Sequence record: PZ543597.1
DNA from: a phage
Strand: one strand, 5' to 3'
Length of the DNA: 64,000 bases
Both the position numbers and the translations under genes were made by a program. The notes below the pieces were generated by a model. The model did no database searches. It was not told where the DNA came from and saw only the letters and a list, made by a program, of their open reading frames with translations. Of this stretch, positions 2,630-64,000 are shown piece after piece; position 1 is the first letter of the stretch, and every line of letters begins with the position of its first letter.

Positions 2630-4687
2630 ATGGAACTTATTACAGAATTATTTGACGGCGCTTCGGCGCCGGTTGTTAACTTAAATCCTAAGCATAAAAT
2701 ACCTCAAATTTTTGCTATTCAAGCCGGTGAAGAAAGCGTGCTTCCTGGATTTAGATTTTGTACATACACCTCTGGTGGTGATACAAATAAAAACGTTAAG
2801 CCAGGCGATAAAATGATGCATATCGTAATGATAGGTGTTAATGAGAAACTATCATTAGTTAAACTTAGAAACTTGGGTGGAAATCCAATTGGTGTCATTA
2901 ATGCCGTTTTTGATACTGCTCTTCAAACAATGAAACAATATAAAATTGACGCATGCTTATTCCGCGTACTAAAGAGTAAAACAAATGGTGCAGCTCGTCA
3001 AATGCAAGTTATTGCCGACCGTTTAGTACGTACTAAAGGAGCAGGTCGATATGTTCTTTTAAAGGAAATCTGGGATTACGATAAAAAGTACGCATATATT
3101 ATGGTTTACCGTAAAAATGCCAATTTAGAAGACATTCCAGGTGTACCTCCTATTTCAACTGAGTTATTCACAAAAGTTGAATCAAAGGTTGGCGATGTTT
3201 ATGTAGATGTTAAAACGGGTAATGCTGTTCCTAAAGCTGTCGCTGTTGCCGCTTCTATTGCTTTAGAAAATGATAAGCGCACGGATCAAGCTGTTATTCA
3301 GAAAACTAAAATTAGTCGTCGATTAGCAGCACAAGCTCAATATTCTACTGTCGATGCTTCACTTCAGGGTGATAGCTTCGCTGCTAAGAAATATCAAGAG
3401 TTTGAATCTAAAGTTCCGGTATATAAAGCAGAAGGATCAATGAATTCTGGCGTTATTCAGATTGGTTCAAACTTCAGCAAAGGAGCTATCGGTGGTATGA
3501 GAAGTGCTTCTCGTTTTAAATCTAACGATTATGAACTAGAAAGCTTCCGAAATCATATTGCATTGGCCCATGCACGTTTACGTGATCCATCTATTAAGTT
3601 ACAGAGCGATATAACATATCAAGGTTCTCAGGAATATTTAAAGAATAAAGAATTTTTTGATTATAAAACTGATAAAATTTTAAGCGATCTTGCTGACATT
3701 AATATTTCTAATAGCTTTGATGTTATTAAGAAAATTATCAATGATTTAGTTAAAGGTTCTAAAGCCACGCCAGACGAAAAGGTAGCTATTATTCAATTTG
3801 TCATGAATGGCATTTATAAATTGATTAATGAATCTGCTGCTCAGGCATATGAATACGCAAGCACCGAAGTAACTCCAAAAGGATTAACTCAGGCTGAGTC
3901 TGATGTAATTGAAGATTATTGTGCAGATTCATATGTTGAAATGAACTCATTCCTCTTGGGTAAACCAGATTCTACCCGTGAAGAATATATGGAACGAGCT
4001 ATTAAACACATCGAGACAATGGATTCTGCCTTTGCCAAAGGTTCAGTTCTTCCTCCAGGAACTACGCTTTATCGTGGACAAGAAGTTACCTTTAAAACTT
4101 TACGTCATAATATTGAAAATAAAATGTTCTATTTCAAGAACTTCGTATCCACATCACTTAAACCAAATATCTTCGGTGAGCATGGTAAAAACTATATGGC
4201 TCTAGATGATTCCGGTGCAGTATTTTCTGGTGAAGGAGAAGGTTCAGTTGACGCAGAAGATTTGATGCATATGGGCAGTCACTCTGCTTATGCGAATGAA
4301 GATGCTGAAACTAGCGTGGGTATGGTAATTAAAGGAGCTGAGCGAATCAAAGTTATCGTTCCAGGTCATTTATCAGGATTTCCATCAGAAGCTGAAGTTA
4401 TTTTACCGCGTGGAATTTTGCTGAAGATTAATAAAGTGAGTACGTACATGATGAAAGAAACTGCTTATAACAAGTATCTAATCGAAGGCACAATCGTTCC
4501 TCCTTCTGAACAATTAGAAGAATCGGTATATGATGGCGACCATCTAATGGAAACTGGTGAAGTTCGTCCAATGGCTGGATTTAATCAATTCCTTGTAGAA
4601 GAATCAAAAGAAGAGGAAAACGAAGTTTCTCAAATCTTGGCTTCTTTGGTTAACATCAACGGAATGTCTAAAAAGTTCAAAATGTAG
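2630..4687 (+). CDS. Alt paralogue, ADP-ribosyltransferase with divergent central region
   Basis: 685-aa ORF 3 nt after alt; shares N-terminus (MELITELFD, CTYTSGGDTN, KQYKIDAC, GRYVLLKE) and C-terminal motifs (TLYRGQ, NFVSTSL, EAEVILPRG); residues ~230-400 unrelated to copy 1. Confidence 0.85.
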   Translation: MELITELFDGASAPVVNLNPKHKIPQIFAIQAGEESVLPGFRFCTYTSGGDTNKNVKPGDKMMHIVMIGVNEKLSLVKLRNLGGNPIGVINAVFDTALQTMKQYKIDACLFRVLKSKTNGAARQMQVIADRLVRTKGAGRYVLLKEIWDYDKKYAYIMVYRKNANLEDIPGVPPISTELFTKVESKVGDVYVDVKTGNAVPKAVAVAASIALENDKRTDQAVIQKTKISRRLAAQAQYSTVDASLQGDSFAAKKYQEFESKVPVYKAEGSMNSGVIQIGSNFSKGAIGGMRSASRFKSNDYELESFRNHIALAHARLRDPSIKLQSDITYQGSQEYLKNKEFFDYKTDKILSDLADINISNSFDVIKKIINDLVKGSKATPDEKVAIIQFVMNGIYKLINESAAQAYEYASTEVTPKGLTQAESDVIEDYCADSYVEMNSFLLGKPDSTREEYMERAIKHIETMDSAFAKGSVLPPGTTLYRGQEVTFKTLRHNIENKMFYFKNFVSTSLKPNIFGEHGKNYMALDDSGAVFSGEGEGSVDAEDLMHMGSHSAYANEDAETSVGMVIKGAERIKVIVPGHLSGFPSEAEVILPRGILLKINKVSTYMMKETAYNKYLIEGTIVPPSEQLEESVYDGDHLMETGEVRPMAGFNQFLVEESKEEENEVSQILASLVNINGMSKKFKM

Positions 4688-20242: not shown

Positions 20243-21808
20243 TTAGATACCTTTAACATATACACGGCGGAAGTAAGCATTTTTACCAAGGCTATTCAGA
20301 ATAGAAGGCATACCGCTCTGGATGCGAGAAGCCGGAGCCTGAGCAGCGGATTCTGCAAATGGGTTAATACCGATACCGTAACGAGTTTTGAATCCCATTA
20401 CCGGTTGGAAGTTCTTCGGATCGGAACCACGCAGCGGAGTCAGAGCTACATATGGAGCGTAGTAAATACCAGCATCCATTTCGTTCGGACCTTTATAACC
20501 TACAGTGAAATAATCCTGTTTAGCATACTGGTCGATATATACACGGTATTTACCACCCAGAACACCAGCAAATACTGACTTGGTAGTATCAGTGTTAAAG
20601 CCGGTAGCCAGACCCTGTGCAGCATAAGAAATGCCGGTATCAACTGAAGCCAGAACGTTAACTACGTTACGGGAAGCGATAATGAAGTTACCTTCGCCGC
20701 GACCAGTCTGACGAGCAATTTCAACTGCTTCTTTGTCAATCTGGAACAACAGAGCTTTAAAGGATTCACCTGCCCAGCGAGCACCACGAATATCGATTGG
20801 GTCCTGGAAGTCAAATACACCAGCTTTAGAACCCGGAGTCAGGGTCATACCAGATTTACCAACCTGAGCGGAGTAGTTAATCCAATCAACAACTTCACGG
20901 TTGATTTCCAGCATGATTTCGGTAGCCAGAATACCAGACAGTTCAGCATCAGCATCCATACCGTGAACAGCGCGGAGGTCTTGTGCTAATTCGATAGAGT
21001 AAGCAGCTTTCAGCTGACGAGATTTAGCTTCGATAACTTGTTTATCGATACGGAAGCCCATTTCATTCCATGGGTTATCGGTAGAACCGTTGAAACCTTC
21101 CTGGAGTTCAGCGATAGAAGTAGCCATACCTTCAGCGATTTCTACCAGTACACCAGCTTCCATTTGTTTCTTAATTTCTGCATCTAATTTAGCTGCGTCA
21201 GATGCACCAGCATCGATTGTTACTACAGCAGAAGCCTGCAGATACACAGTACCAGTTTCCTGGAAGAAGTGAGTATAGATATCACCTACAACGGTTTGTG
21301 TGCTAGCAGCCAGAGCTGGGAATTTCTTAGCAGCACCCTGACCAGAGAACATTGCATCTGGACCATACATTGGGTGGAATGCTTCTTTAGCGCCGGCAGC
21401 GATTGGGTCTTTACCATATACTGCGCGCAGTGCGAATACCTGACCAGTTGGGCTGTTCATCGGCTGAACACCGCAAATATCGAAAGCAATCAGGTTAGGA
21501 ATAGCACGACGTACCATACCCATAACAGCTGGGCCAATCTGAGTTACTGCGCCAGAAGTCTGACCAGCAGCGATGTTAGTAGCGTTGTAACCGTGGTCAC
21601 CACCGATTTCAGCTTCTGTTAAGAAAGAACCGAATGCCTGAGCAATTTTTTCGTCTTTGTACTCTGGAGCTGTCTGGAAATCTTTTTCCTGGTTTTCAAA
21701 GATTTTAGCGATAATCGCTTGTTTGCTATTAGCAATTTCCGGTAAACCTTCACCTTCCAGTAATGGCTTCCATTTGTTCAAAAGTTCAGCTTTAGTTTTG
21801 ATAGTCAT
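20243..21808 (-). CDS. 23: major capsid protein gp23
   Basis: 521-aa ORF, length and order as T4 gp23. Confidence 0.95.
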   Translation of the reverse strand: MTIKTKAELLNKWKPLLEGEGLPEIANSKQAIIAKIFENQEKDFQTAPEYKDEKIAQAFGSFLTEAEIGGDHGYNATNIAAGQTSGAVTQIGPAVMGMVRRAIPNLIAFDICGVQPMNSPTGQVFALRAVYGKDPIAAGAKEAFHPMYGPDAMFSGQGAAKKFPALAASTQTVVGDIYTHFFQETGTVYLQASAVVTIDAGASDAAKLDAEIKKQMEAGVLVEIAEGMATSIAELQEGFNGSTDNPWNEMGFRIDKQVIEAKSRQLKAAYSIELAQDLRAVHGMDADAELSGILATEIMLEINREVVDWINYSAQVGKSGMTLTPGSKAGVFDFQDPIDIRGARWAGESFKALLFQIDKEAVEIARQTGRGEGNFIIASRNVVNVLASVDTGISYAAQGLATGFNTDTTKSVFAGVLGGKYRVYIDQYAKQDYFTVGYKGPNEMDAGIYYAPYVALTPLRGSDPKNFQPVMGFKTRYGIGINPFAESAAQAPASRIQSGMPSILNSLGKNAYFRRVYVKGI

Positions 21809-53711: not shown

Positions 53712-53784
53712 TGGGAATTAGCCAAGTTGGTAAGGCACTGGATTTTGATTCCAGGATGCAAAGGTTCGAGTCCTTTATTCCCAG
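53712..53784 (+). tRNA. tRNA-Gln (anticodon UUG)
   Basis: acceptor TGGGAAT/ATTCCCA, anticodon loop tTTTGAt, T-loop GGTTCGAGTCC. Confidence 0.85.
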
Positions 53785-53785
53785 C

Positions 53786-53872
53786 GCGAGAATGGCCAAA
53801 TTGGTAAAGGCACAGCACTTAAAATGCTGCGGAATGATTTCCTTGTGGGTTCGAGTCCCACTTCTCGCACCA
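53786..53872 (+). tRNA. tRNA-Leu (anticodon UAA), type II, CCA encoded
   Basis: acceptor GCGAGAA/TTCTCGC, anticodon loop CTTAAAA, long variable arm, 3' ACCA. Confidence 0.85.
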
Positions 53873-53877
53873 AATTT

Positions 53878-53951
<74 letters not shown>

Positions 53952-53961
53952 ATTTAATTTA

Positions 53962-54035
53962 CTCCGTGTAGCTCAGTTTGGTAGAGCGTCTGCTTTGGGA
54001 GCAGAATGTCGTAGGTTCAAATCCTGCCACGGAGA
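53962..54035 (+). tRNA. tRNA-Pro (anticodon UGG)
   Basis: acceptor CTCCGTG/CACGGAG, anticodon loop TTTGGGA, T-loop GGTTCAAATCC. Confidence 0.85.
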
Positions 54036-54037
54036 CT

Positions 54038-54127
54038 GGAGGCGTGGCAGAGTGGTTTAATGCACCGGTCTTGAAAATCGGCAGTCGCTCCGGCGACTCA
54101 TAGGTTCAAATCCTATCGCCTCCGCCA
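54038..54127 (+). tRNA. tRNA-Ser (anticodon UGA), type II, CCA encoded
   Basis: acceptor GGAGGCG/CGCCTCC, anticodon loop CTTGAAA, long variable arm. Confidence 0.85.
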
Positions 54128-54132
54128 GTTTT

Positions 54133-54208
54133 GCTGATTTAGCTCAGTAGGTAGAGCAACTCACTTGTAATGAGAAGGTCGGCGGTTCGATTCCGTCAAT
54201 CAGCACCA
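54133..54208 (+). tRNA. tRNA-Thr (anticodon UGU), CCA encoded
   Basis: acceptor GCTGATT/AATCAGC, anticodon loop CTTGTAA. Confidence 0.85.
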
Positions 54209-54209
54209 A

Positions 54210-54284
54210 GGCCCTGTAGCTGGAAGGTTCAAGCAAGCGACTCATAATCGCCAGATGGTGGTTCAATTCCACCCAGGGCCACCA
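54210..54284 (+). tRNA. tRNA with CAU anticodon (Ile via lysidine, or Met), CCA encoded
   Basis: acceptor GGCCCTG/CAGGGCC, anticodon loop CTCATAA. Confidence 0.8.
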
Positions 54285-54293
54285 AATTAATTT

Positions 54294-54380
54294 GGGGAGT
54301 TATCCCGTAGAGGTAGCGGTGTGGACTGTAAATCCATTGTCATTGCGACTCGGGTGGTTCGACTCCACCACTCCCCACCA
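54294..54380 (+). tRNA. tRNA-Tyr (anticodon GUA), type II, CCA encoded
   Basis: acceptor GGGGAGT/ACTCCCC, anticodon loop CTGTAAA, long variable arm. Confidence 0.8.
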
Positions 54381-54384
54381 ATTT

Positions 54385-54459
54385 GGATGTGTAGCTCAAT
54401 GGCAGAGCGATCGCCTGTTAAGCGATTGGTTATAGGTTCGAATCCTATCACGTCCGCCA
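54385..54459 (+). tRNA. tRNA-Asn (anticodon GUU), CCA encoded
   Basis: acceptor GGATGTG/CACGTCC, anticodon loop CTGTTAA, T-loop GGTTCGAATCC. Confidence 0.8.
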
Positions 54460-54573
54460 AATTTGTGACAACTGTCACATTAATATCTACTTGACGCGAT
54501 TATAGGGGTTGAACTGATCACTCTTCTCTTAATTTCGTGTGAAGACATCTTGATTGTTGGAGTAGGTATTAAT

Positions 54574-54649
54574 GTGGCCGTAGTTCAGTTGGTAGAACTC
54601 GAGATTGTGATTCTCGTAGTCATGGGTTCGACTCCCATCGGTCACCCCA
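54574..54649 (+). tRNA. tRNA-His (anticodon GUG), CCA encoded
   Basis: acceptor GTGGCCG/CGGTCAC, anticodon stem CGAGA/TCTCG with loop TTGTGAT, discriminator C. Confidence 0.75.
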
Positions 54650-54653
54650 ATTA

Positions 54654-54729
54654 CGGGGCATAGCTCAGAAGGAAGAGCAAGGACCTTCTAAGTCCTAGGT
54701 CGTAGGTTCGATCCCTACTGCCTCGACCA
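54654..54729 (+). tRNA. tRNA-Arg (anticodon UCU), CCA encoded
   Basis: acceptor CGGGGCA/TGCCTCG, anticodon loop CTTCTAA, T-loop GGTTCGATCC. Confidence 0.85.
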
Positions 54730-60463: not shown

Positions 60464-61266
<803 letters not shown>

Positions 61267-61268
61267 TG

Positions 61269-61297
61269 TTTACTTCCTCCAAGGACTTTGATACTAT
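61269..61297 (+). promoter_or_regulatory. early-type promoter (TTTACT-N17-TACTAT) upstream of denV
   Basis: -35 61269-61274, -10 61292-61297. Confidence 0.6.
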
Positions 61298-61324
61298 ACA
61301 TTCATCAACTACTTGGAGGAAATT

Positions 61325-61741
61325 ATGACTCGTATCAATTTAACACTTGTTTCTGAACTGACCGACCAACATCTTATGGCTGAGTATCGTGAATTGCCAC
61401 GTGTTTTTGGTATAGTTCGTAAGCATGTGGCAAACGGTAAGCGCGCTAAAGATTTTAAAATATCTTCTAAATTTATTTTAGGTTCTGGTCATGTTACTTT
61501 CTTTTACGATAAGTTAGAATTTTTGCGAAAGCGTCAATCGGACATTATAACGGAATGCTTAAAACGCGGGTTCAGTATAAAAGATACTGAAGTTCCTGAC
61601 ATCAGCGATATTCCAGTAGAATGGAAAAATGATTATAATCCATGCAAATCAGCTATTAAGTTGAGTCAACAACGACTCGATGAAAAAATTTTAATGAAGC
61701 CACACTGGTATAAGTATTACGGCAAAAATATTTACATTTAA
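61325..61741 (+). CDS. denV: endonuclease V (pyrimidine-dimer DNA glycosylase)
   Basis: 138 aa from [12 protein letters not shown]...; matches T4 EndoV as recalled; ORF track extends 4 codons upstream. Confidence 0.95.
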
Positions 61742-61886
61742 ATAACATGGGAATAACCTGGACCTCATGATTCTATGAGGGATTCCCGCCAACCTGTAAT
61801 AAGGTCGAGCCCAAGTGCGGTAATGGGTAAATACAGAAATGGACAATTCATGCGCCATGGAATGGCCCAAATTTAGAGAGAATAAA

Positions 61887-62426
61887 ATGAGAACATTTTT
61901 AACTGGTCCTTATCTATCCCTGATGAATGCTTTTACACACCATTCTGATGCTAGAGTAGAAGAAATTTGTAAAAACGAATATATCCCACCATTTGAAGAC
62001 TTACTTAAGCAGTATTGCACACTTCGACTAGACGGTGGACGTCAATCCGGTAAATCAACTGCTGTGACTAACTTTGCTGCTAATTGGCTGTATGACGGTG
62101 GAACAGTTATTGTTCTTTCTAATACTTCAGCTTACGCTAAAATTTCTGCAGGCCACATTAAAAAAGAATTTTCTCGTTATTCTAGTGATGATATTCGATT
62201 CCGCTTATTTACTGATTCTGTCCGTAGTTTTATCGGTAATAAAGGAAGCAAGTTCAGAGGTTTATCTCTTTCGCGAATTTTGTATATAATCGATGAGCCT
62301 GTTAAATCTCCTGATATGGATAAAATTTACGATATTCATATTGAAACTGTGCAACACTGCTGTAATAGTAAATGCTGCATTGGCGGTATTACTCGTCCGC
62401 AGTTTTTCGTAATTGGAATGCAATGA
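61887..62426 (+). CDS. hypothetical P-loop (Walker A) protein
   Basis: start at ATG with SD (agagag); motif GGRQSGKST; 179 aa. Confidence 0.6.
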   Translation: MRTFLTGPYLSLMNAFTHHSDARVEEICKNEYIPPFEDLLKQYCTLRLDGGRQSGKSTAVTNFAANWLYDGGTVIVLSNTSAYAKISAGHIKKEFSRYSSDDIRFRLFTDSVRSFIGNKGSKFRGLSLSRILYIIDEPVKSPDMDKIYDIHIETVQHCCNSKCCIGGITRPQFFVIGMQ

Positions 62427-62752
62427 TGACAGATACGCAACTTTTCGAATATCTTTATTTTTCGCCAAAAACTATTAAAAATAAATTGGTGAATCATTTT
62501 GAAATTTTGGCAAATAACAACGTCTTGAGCGAATTTTATCCCAAGCAATACAAATTACAAAAAGGTGTATTCAAAGGATGCAGAGTTTTGTGCACTGCTC
62601 CTAATGCAAGATTAATGAATAAAATTCCATATTTTACCATGGAATTTATTGATGGACCATTTAAAGGATTAATTACTCAAAGTTTAATGGCATATGATTC
62701 TGAGCCATTTTTAATTAAAGAACAGTCTTGGATAAATTTATTTTCTAATTGA
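62423..62752 (+). CDS. hypothetical protein
   Basis: ATG overlapping the previous stop (ATGATGA); 109 aa. Confidence 0.5.
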   Translation: MMTDTQLFEYLYFSPKTIKNKLVNHFEILANNNVLSEFYPKQYKLQKGVFKGCRVLCTAPNARLMNKIPYFTMEFIDGPFKGLITQSLMAYDSEPFLIKEQSWINLFSN

Positions 62753-62758
62753 GGTTAT

Positions 62759-63121
62759 ATGAAAGCATATCAAATTCTTGAAGGCACGCATAAAGGTACT
62801 ATTTATTTTGAAGATGGTATTCAAGCACGAATTATTGTTTCTAAAACCTTTAAAGAGGACTCTTTTGTAGACCCAGAAATTTTCTACGGTTTGCATGCCC
62901 GTGAAATTGAAATTGAACCACAGCCTACAGTTAAAATTGAAGGTGGTCAACACCTGAACGTTAACGTTCTGCGTCGTGAAACTCTGGAAGATGCAGTTAA
63001 GCATCCGGAAAAATATCCGCAGCTGACCATCCGTGTATCCGGTTATGCAGTTCGCTTTAACTCTCTGACTCCGGAACAGCAGCGCGACGTTATCGCTCGT
63101 ACCTTTACTGAGAGCTTGTAA
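62759..63121 (+). CDS. glycyl-radical cofactor protein (GrcA/YfiD-like)
   Basis: 120 aa; C-terminal ~60 aa ([59 protein letters not shown]) match E. coli GrcA as recalled, with glycyl-radical motif RVSGY. Confidence 0.9.
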
Positions 63122-63342
63122 TGGCAAAGATAATTATTGAAGGTTCTAAAGATGTGTTAAATGCTTTCGCAGAATGGTTTAGTAATTCAGGCGAACAGCA
63201 ATTTAATGAAGCGTGGAATATGGGTGATATTAGTGGAATTTATCCTACGACAGAAATTTCTGTTCAGGGATATGGCATTCATGAACCTATTCGTTTAGTT
63301 GAATATGATTTGGGAACGGGCGAGGAAGTCAAATATGATTGA
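63121..63342 (+). CDS. hypothetical small protein
   Basis: 73-aa ORF, start overlaps the previous stop. Confidence 0.5.
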   Translation: MAKIIIEGSKDVLNAFAEWFSNSGEQQFNEAWNMGDISGIYPTTEISVQGYGIHEPIRLVEYDLGTGEEVKYD

Positions 63343-63601
63343 AGATATTAAAGGTTATAAGCCGCACACTGAAGAGAAAATCGATAAAGTGAATGCTATC
63401 AAAGACGCTGAAGTTCGTTTAGGACTTATCTTTGATGCTTTATATGATGAATTCTGGGAAGCACTAGATAATTGTGAAGACTGTGAATTCGCGAAGAATT
63501 ATGCTGAAAGCCTCGATCAGTTAACTATTGCTAAAACGAAACTCAAAGAATCCAGTATGTGGGCTTGTCGTGCAGTGTTCAAACCAGAGGAAAAATACTA
63601 A
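63335..63601 (+). CDS. hypothetical small protein
   Basis: start at ATG with SD gaggaag overlapping the previous stop; 88 aa. Confidence 0.5.
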
Positions 63602-63879
63602 TGACTCAATTAAGCGCAGGGTTTGGTTATGAGTATTATACTGCCCCTCGTCGTGTATCTGTTGCTCCTAAGAAAATTCAAAGTCTTGATGATTTCCAGG
63701 AAGTAGTCCGTAACGCTTTCCAGGACTATGCACGCTATCTTAAAGAAGATTCACAGGACTGTCTCGAAGAAGATGAAATTGCTTACTATACGCAGCGTCT
63801 TGAACAGCTCAAAAATCTACATGAGGTTCGTGCCGAAGTTTCAAAGTCTATGAATAAATTGATTAGATTTAAAGAATAA
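63601..63879 (+). CDS. hypothetical small protein
   Basis: start at TAATG overlap ([13 protein letters not shown]...); 92 aa. Confidence 0.5.
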
Positions 63880-63882
63880 CTG

Positions 63883-63911
63883 TTTACTTTTCCTCTTGAC
63901 TGTGGTATAAT
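63883..63911 (+). promoter_or_regulatory. early-type promoter (TTTACT-N17-TATAAT)
   Basis: -35 63883-63888, -10 63906-63911. Confidence 0.6.
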
Positions 63912-63939
63912 TTTTCTATCAGTTAAGAGGAGAATAACA

Positions 63940-64000
63940 TGACTATCAACACAGAAGTTTTTATCCGTCGAAATAAGCTTCGTCGTCACTTTGAGTCGGA
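63940..64000 (+). CDS. hypothetical protein, 5' end only (truncated by window edge)
   Basis: ATG with SD gaggag; MTINTEVFIRRNKLRRHFES... Confidence 0.4.

Follow-up and report, generated by a model that had tools for sequence, protein, structure and literature searches.

It is highly probable that a gene for a small glycyl-radical protein in this phage, the ortholog of T4 vs.6/Y06I, carries in its radical-domain half a tract converted from the grcA gene of the bacterial host, and that the process has been recurrent. The DNA analysed (sequence record PZ543597.1, 64,000 nucleotides) is referred to throughout as the window, and the features concerned are listed below by position, strand and identity.

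61313-61741, denV-like (T4 endonuclease V-like) open reading frame, upstream of the grcA-like gene
62751..62754, plus strand, Shine-Dalgarno-like GAGG, 4 nt 5' of the ATG, read from the sequence
62759..63121, plus strand, coding sequence of 120 aa, ortholog of T4 vs.6/Y06I (ORF 63.1), a GrcA/YfiD-like autonomous glycyl-radical cofactor
62759..62936, plus strand, phage-type 5' segment, codons 1-59 and one base (GC 0.345, GC3 0.203)
62937..63111, plus strand, tract of host origin attributed to gene conversion, matching the chromosomal grcA of E. coli at 100% over 175 nt
63032..63046, plus strand, RVSGY glycyl-radical motif, from the translation and from alignment to GrcA (PDB 6owr) and to PflB 697-759
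63112..63121, plus strand, phage-type tail, the third base of codon 118 followed by AGC TTG TAA
63121..63342, plus strand, vs.5-like open reading frame, downstream, the A of its ATG being the last A of the TAA of the grcA-like gene

The gene is the ortholog of T4 vs.6/Y06I, an assignment made because it lies in the same denV to regB block and shares 97-99.7% DNA identity with T4-type phages. Identity was 99.7% to the gene labelled 'GrcA' in phage HP3 and 97-99% to its counterparts in T4, T2, RB14 and AR1, where the label vs.6 is used for several of them; record X04567 of T4 lists the ortholog as ORF 63.1. The gene order in the best-matching phages is denV, vs.8, vs.7, vs.6, vs.5, vs.4, vs.3 and regB, and the annotated neighbours in HP3, JS09 and T4 X04567 agree with the block in the window, the downstream open reading frames matching too. 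The GAGG at 62751..62754 overlaps the TGA stop of the preceding vs.7-like open reading frame (62372..62752). With its own Shine-Dalgarno sequence and stop codon, the 120-aa reading frame encodes a small stand-alone protein and not the C-terminus of a large enzyme. Between the denV-like and vs.8-like reading frames the intergenic segment 61742-61838 was raised in GC content (∼0.47); it matched nothing in Rfam, and neither promoter nor terminator signals rose above background there. An Rfam scan of 61000-64000 returned no match, and promoter and terminator scans scored no better than shuffled sequence.

The two halves of the protein differ in their relation to E. coli GrcA. Residues 61-120 were identical to GrcA 68-127 at 60 of 60 positions, RVSGY included, and the radical glycine, G95, is encoded by GGT at 63041-63043. 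Residues 22-59 aligned weakly with GrcA 28-66 (∼35% identity) and residues 1-21 were unalignable. The tract encodes residues 61-117 in full and parts of codons 60 and 118, corresponding to GrcA 68-124, and its product also aligns to PflB 697-759; the 5' segment codes for the part equivalent to the N-terminal half of GrcA, a half that NMR shows to be disordered. The protein matched the Pfam family Gly_radical (PF01228) at 66.8 bits against a cut-off of 22.2. The NCBIfam equivalog model for GrcA, TIGR04365, aligned over residues 20-120 with 153.3 bits, a score that falls under the cut-off of 170 because the N-terminal half is divergent and phage-specific; scanned alone, the 5' half gave no Pfam or NCBIfam match.

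According to Wagner 2001, as related in PMC8683613, T4 Y06I is, like YfiD, radicalised by PFL activase in vitro and restores activity to oxygen-cleaved PFL. Residues 61-127 of YfiD form the structured domain that inserts into PFL and residues 1-60 are disordered, although the N-terminal half counts for binding to cleaved PFL and for efficient activation (PMC8683613). Nolan 2006 (PMC1524935) mentions the Gly_radical domain and nothing more, apart from a guess that the protein takes part in nucleotide metabolism. By orthology to Y06I, the window protein would be radicalised by PflA and would rescue oxygen-cleaved PflB. The likeness to Y06I, a protein for which the first-pass annotation had mentioned a report of PFL repair, is thus borne out by synteny and DNA identity, and the repair itself is reported for Y06I in PMC8683613. 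Both proteins have 120 aa, and in both phages the gene follows vs.7 and precedes vs.5 downstream of denV; the 5' halves are ∼97% identical in DNA and both genes carry the E. coli-type tract. They differ at one site in the tract, where T4 has CAT (His72) and the window, like E. coli GrcA, has CGT (Arg), and in the last three codons, which are GAG AGC TTG in the window and GAA AGT TTG in T4. The codon 72 difference was read from T4 X04567 (L276), 801-1163, against the region of 63014-63016 in the window.

E. coli GrcA/YfiD (TIGR04365; IPR011140; PDB 6OWR) is likewise a small stand-alone glycyl-radical protein, with PflA and oxygen-cleaved PflB as the expected partners in both cases. The phage protein, however, is 7 residues shorter and its N-terminal half is phage-specific; given the role of that half in YfiD, regulation or affinity may differ in the phage. 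The C-terminal glycyl-radical domain of PflB (and TdcE) has the same fold and motif, but in DNA the tract is ∼80% identical to host pflB and 100% identical to grcA. The gene and its biochemistry are already known, and nothing new on function is reported here.

By blastn, 62937-63121 matched chromosomal grcA at 183 of 185 positions in all 5426 of 5426 complete E. coli genomes. Pairwise alignment with the commonest E. coli grcA alleles gave 175 consecutive identical bases out of 175, at 62937-63111. In 5156 of the 5426 genomes grcA was no less than 99% identical to the tract, and in 13 of 30 sampled matches the figure was 100%; such identity is far beyond chance. Directly 5' of the tract, at 62933-62936, the phage has AAAA where E. 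coli has CGCG, and over the 5' half similarity to grcA DNA did not exceed ∼50%. The last three codons, GAG AGC TTG in the phage and GAA AGC CTG in E. coli, contain two synonymous differences. The left junction therefore falls between 62936 and ∼62944, within TTGAAGGTGG, and the right junction between ∼63106 and 63112.

Composition changes within the same gene. From the 5' to the 3' half, GC content goes up from 0.345 to 0.492 and GC3 from 0.203 to 0.443. No higher GC3 occurred among 1505 windows of 61 codons drawn from every open reading frame of at least 120 aa in the 64-kb window, and the value of the 3' half equals their maximum (mean 0.231, sd 0.062, z = 3.4). In the 3' half CTG was used for five of six leucines, CCG for all three prolines and CGT or CGC for all six arginines; window-wide, CTG accounts for 7% of leucine codons and CCG for 14% of proline codons. 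A GrcA-like C-terminus of ∼60 residues with RVSGY, encoded by E. coli-preferred codons in a GC-richer 3' half, is what the first-pass annotation had described, and on each point it was correct. The break along the gene is sharp and not uniform, and the BLASTN result, with its 175-nt perfect tract, is the opposite of the low identity to grcA that would have spoken against recombination.

A megablast of 1-62900 against the same 5426 E. coli genomes matched no chromosome, its only hits coming from the tRNA array. Among coding stretches of the window, GC content is highest (∼0.53 at 21281-21600) inside the gp23-like major capsid open reading frame (20243-21808, minus strand); this stretch had no match to E. 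coli DNA, and its GC peak looks like high-expression composition and not host transfer. Eleven tRNA genes (Gln, Leu, Gly, Pro, Ser, Thr, Met, Tyr, Asn, His and Arg) at 53712-54729 form a further GC-rich spot at ∼54 kb, which was regarded as ordinary; T4 has 8 tRNA genes. Within this array ∼54289-54445 was 82-89% identical to plasmid tRNA arrays in 212 E. coli genomes, and the plasmids concerned are possibly phage-plasmids; the array matched no E. coli chromosome.

The right-hand end of the gene is variable. Among Tequatrovirus and Mosigvirus the last three codons were GAA AGT TTG, GAG AGC TTG, GAG AGT TTG, GAG AGT CTG or GAG AGT CTA, which reflects either differing right junctions or later mutation. 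Codon 118, GAG, lies inside the annotated ribosome-binding site of the downstream vs.5-like gene (63110-63114 in the window; L164 1674-1677; T4 and Mineola records). This role may keep the last codons from replacement by host sequence, a weak argument since T4 has GAA at this position.

The age of the tract was assessed from its distribution among related phages. In the phage collection 480 records had a 5' half of at least 95% identity and another 152 (Mosigvirus) one of 80-90%, and 643 had a 3' half of at least 95% identity; the tract is present in essentially all Tequatrovirus, T4 record X04567 included, and in Mosigvirus, amounting to ∼640 genomes. Seven Tequatrovirus copies (the window, T4 and L002-L006) and three Mosigvirus copies (JS09, L007 and L008) were compared in detail. 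Between the two genera the flanking 300 and 220 nt were ∼70% identical and the 5' halves differed at 19-20 sites, 12 of them synonymous, whereas the tracts differed at 0-2 sites (Fisher p = 8e-5). For both genera together pi was 0.0127 in the tract and 0.0645 in the 5' half (p = 0.005). Because the tract is far less diverged than the 5' half and the flanks, it is younger than the split between Tequatrovirus and Mosigvirus, and it reached both genera either independently from the host or by exchange between phages. Within Tequatrovirus the segregating sites were roughly equal in number (7/172 in the tract and 11/177 in the 5' half), and the tract therefore predates the sampled diversity and is not recent for this phage. 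A CGC variant was common to phage L003 and E. coli L73, and is a candidate for a natural grcA polymorphism carried by a phage tract. The first-pass annotation had proposed a recent recombination with host grcA; the host origin held, while 'recent' applies only relative to the split between the phage genera.

The same gene position is occupied by a different tract in the Klebsiella phages of the genus Jiaodavirus (Mineola, JD18 and others), in which GC content was 0.56-0.60 in the tract and 0.36 in the 5' half. Twelve copies were sampled; a scan of IMG/VR with the Mineola protein gave a single full Jiaodavirus contig, and GenBank records were added. Klebsiella-type alleles of grcA were obtained from a pattern scan of metagenomes, which yielded 30 contigs of ∼57% GC. 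The nearest named references of these contigs were a Klebsiella MAG (83-84%) and Raoultella (82-83%), and those aligned (L165, L168, L174 and L185) showed ung-grcA synteny as in E. coli. The contigs of alleles L165 and L168 were 92.7% identical over 3 kb, and therefore come from different species.

Individual phages matched individual alleles of this set. The metagenomic phage contig L170 had 0 differences from allele L165 over 158 nt, and L028 had one; Mineola had 0 differences from allele L168 and carried the L168 state at 5 of the 5 sites that separate L165 from L168. Among 11 Jiaodavirus copies there were 21 segregating sites in 158 nt of tract against 7 in 177 nt of the 5' half (p = 0.003), and pi was 0.0425 in the tract and 0.0105 in the 5' half, an approximately 4-fold excess; nearly all of the tract variation was at third codon positions. 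The diversity of the tract thus mirrors that of the host gene, E. coli grcA being nearly monomorphic and the Klebsiella and Raoultella alleles diverse. Relative to T4, the right junction of Jiaodavirus is displaced upstream by ∼10-15 nt, to where the phages' own tail departs earlier from host sequence, and such a shift fits junctions set by the limits of homology. On this evidence the Klebsiella phages acquired their tracts independently, from at least two host alleles. The first-pass annotation therefore needs a second refinement, since recombination with grcA is neither private to this phage nor, to judge by the Klebsiella-type tracts of Jiaodavirus, a one-off.

The one alternative with appreciable standing, although we think it unlikely, is that a single host-to-phage conversion took place in one E. 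coli phage lineage and the tract was then spread between phages at co-infection, transfer from the host being rare at least where E. coli phages are concerned. The left junction interval and the tail type are the same in Tequatrovirus and Mosigvirus, as a single conversion would predict, and the similar diversity of tract and 5' half in Tequatrovirus means that one old event per genus would be enough. Jiaodavirus phages with 0/177 differences in the 5' half, however, carry different exact Klebsiella alleles, their tracts differing from each other at 3-10 sites. Spread between phages would also need a crossover in or near flanks that are only ∼70% identical. Recurrent conversion from host grcA accommodates these observations and is preferred here.

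Several smaller patches of host-like sequence were encountered at this locus. In Raoultella phage Ra_O-1 (L279) five of seven variant sites in the tract, counted against the main Klebsiella-type allele, matched the Raoultella MAG allele L121, from which the phage differed at 13 sites overall; this is suggestive of partial conversion in its isolation host. Contig L195 (OIEZ01001054.1) combines at ∼3617-3901 a 5' part like that of grcA with a 3' end like that of PflB (TKEQQKDVITRTFTQSM); it arose either by chimeric assembly or, in a Klebsiella-type genome, by conversion between grcA and pflB. At positions 140-173 of the block, 7 derived sites are common to L195 and Klebsiella phage KP179 (L283). 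There are hints here of pflB as a further donor, a pflB-like patch being suspected only in KP179. In L023 (IMG/VR 3300008607_000007), block 156-209, 53 nt were identical to grcA of Haemophilus parainfluenzae (L143, L147), and the sister contigs L021 and L024-L026 differed from L023 at several sites in this stretch. The patch may be a short conversion in a Pasteurellaceae phage; it was borderline after multiple testing and was left uncounted.

Full-length homologs lacking a host-identical tract were found in CC31-type, RB16/RB43/KP15-type, T5-type and other phages. Compared with 81 sampled bacterial grcA genes, their 3' blocks reached no more than 72-83% identity to the best match (the genome scan for bacterial references covered 80 of more than 574 loci, K. 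pneumoniae not among them). Over its 5' half the window gene falls in with these phage homologs; the 5' halves of Mosigvirus and Jiaodavirus are 89% and ∼72% identical to it, and the tail GAG AGT CTA TAATG is common to Mosigvirus and to the non-mosaic RB16- and KP15-type phages. Since phage homologs exist and both the 5' half and the tail are shared with phages, the gene was already resident when an internal segment was replaced. The event is best described from these comparisons as a gene conversion with both junctions inside the reading frame, and not as capture of a whole gene.

Capture of a complete grcA from the host, followed by rapid divergence of the 5' half and conservation of the 3' half, is very improbable. 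Residues 22-59 can be weakly aligned with GrcA 28-66 and TIGR04365 spans residues 20-120, as would be expected of a captured gene, but identity rises from ∼50% to 100% within a few bases, at synonymous sites too, GC3 steps from 0.20 to 0.44, and the 5' half and the last three codons are common with the tract-free phage homologs. Transfer in the reverse direction, by which bacterial grcA 3' ends would derive from phage, has an equally slight probability. Shared alleles alone give no direction; the composition of the tract, however, is that of the host and not of the phage, the phage 5' half has no bacterial counterpart, and the bacterial gene, uniform from end to end and set in conserved ung-grcA synteny, has diverged among enterobacteria together with its flanks.

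In the RB16-type phages (L014-L016) the radical-domain block of 61 residues was 100% identical to the E. coli GrcA protein, while 31 of 183 nt (17%) differed from E. coli, all of them synonymously. Either purifying selection on this block is very strong, or the block was converted long ago and has since drifted to phage codon usage. Protein identity despite synonymous divergence means that conversion is not needed to meet the constraint on the protein, and the E. coli phages RB16 and RB43, unconverted though the block is ∼83% identical to grcA, count against conversion. So strongly constrained a domain might be thought to reach nucleotide identity by convergence, through selection on codons, mRNA structure or protein and with no transfer, yet we regard this as still less probable than whole-gene capture: the RB16-type phages satisfy the protein constraint without identity of DNA, and the Klebsiella phages match alleles at sites that are synonymously polymorphic between Klebsiella species. 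An artefact of assembly or contamination, by which host reads were merged into a phage contig, is hardly conceivable, for although host DNA contaminates phage preparations in general, nothing specific points to it here, the same mosaic occurs in ∼640 independently sequenced phage genomes including T4 X04567, and both the reading frame and its overlap with the next gene are undisturbed.

Under conversion from host grcA, a resident and diverged phage homolog would have recombined with E. coli grcA, and gene conversion would have left the tract at 62937-63111. The tract fills nearly all of the block over which the phage and host genes can be aligned as DNA; its ends coincide with the ends of that homology, the left one at the start of the structured glycyl-radical domain and the right one a few bases before the stop codon. 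Recurrence would account for the E. coli allele in two genera of E. coli phages and for differing Klebsiella alleles in Klebsiella phages. The T4 recombination machinery may act on fragments of the host chromosome during replication of phage DNA. A converted tract, being ∼85-90% or more identical to any enterobacterial grcA, would make the next conversion easier, a putative ratchet. The homology to the right of the junction, only ∼10 nt, is short for canonical homologous recombination and counts against conversion.

The fit of a host-identical radical domain to the PflB and PflA of the host may be the reason why converted alleles persist. As a spare part, the C-terminal domain would be radicalised by host PflA and dock into oxygen-cleaved PflB, restoring PFL activity during infection. 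Against an adaptive value, purifying selection alone can hold the protein sequence, as in the RB16-type phages. We consider the chances about even that in strictly virulent T4-type phages the radical half of vs.6 is a host-tracking cassette, repeatedly overwritten by grcA, and possibly pflB, of the current enterobacterial host and kept by selection. If so, the tract would record the recent host species of a phage lineage, which would explain the E. coli allele in Tequatrovirus isolates grown on Yersinia, Citrobacter or Proteus. An exact match to PflB and PflA would then maximise the rescue of host fermentative metabolism during infection, and the locus would be a natural reporter of homologous chromosomal sequence of the host entering phages that break down the DNA of their hosts.

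The closest parallel is the intragenic recombination between host and phage described for psbA and psbD of cyanophages (Sullivan et al. 2006, PMC1484495). There too a virulent T4-like phage carries a host-derived metabolic gene that has swapped segments with host alleles, giving mosaics with compositional breaks. The present case differs in the host, which is enterobacterial, and in the gene; only the segment for the structured domain is replaced, on a long-resident phage 5' half, and the matches are at the level of alleles, with 0 differences over 158-175 nt in at least two host genera. As in other host-phage mosaics, sharp breakpoints of identity were found together with a compositional break, and the segments have incongruent histories that point to independent events in different lineages. 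No paper was found in the literature on the nucleotide-level mosaic of vs.6 or on its recurrence, although an earlier mention is possible. The kind of evolutionary process is known, and recurrent conversion following the alleles of the host adds a new example of it.

The new content is therefore evolutionary and not functional. Unusually clean evidence, resolved to single alleles, comes from this locus for recombination of virulent T4-type phages with homologous host chromosomal genes in nature, although such phages degrade host DNA, and for its having happened more than once and with more than one host genus. The tract is a possible sequence marker of the recent host of a phage lineage, and the locus would be suited to an assay of gene flow by means of a synonymously marked host grcA. 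It also constitutes a natural experiment on which region of the spare part must match the host, the structured domain being host-identical and the disordered, binding-related N-terminal half phage-specific.
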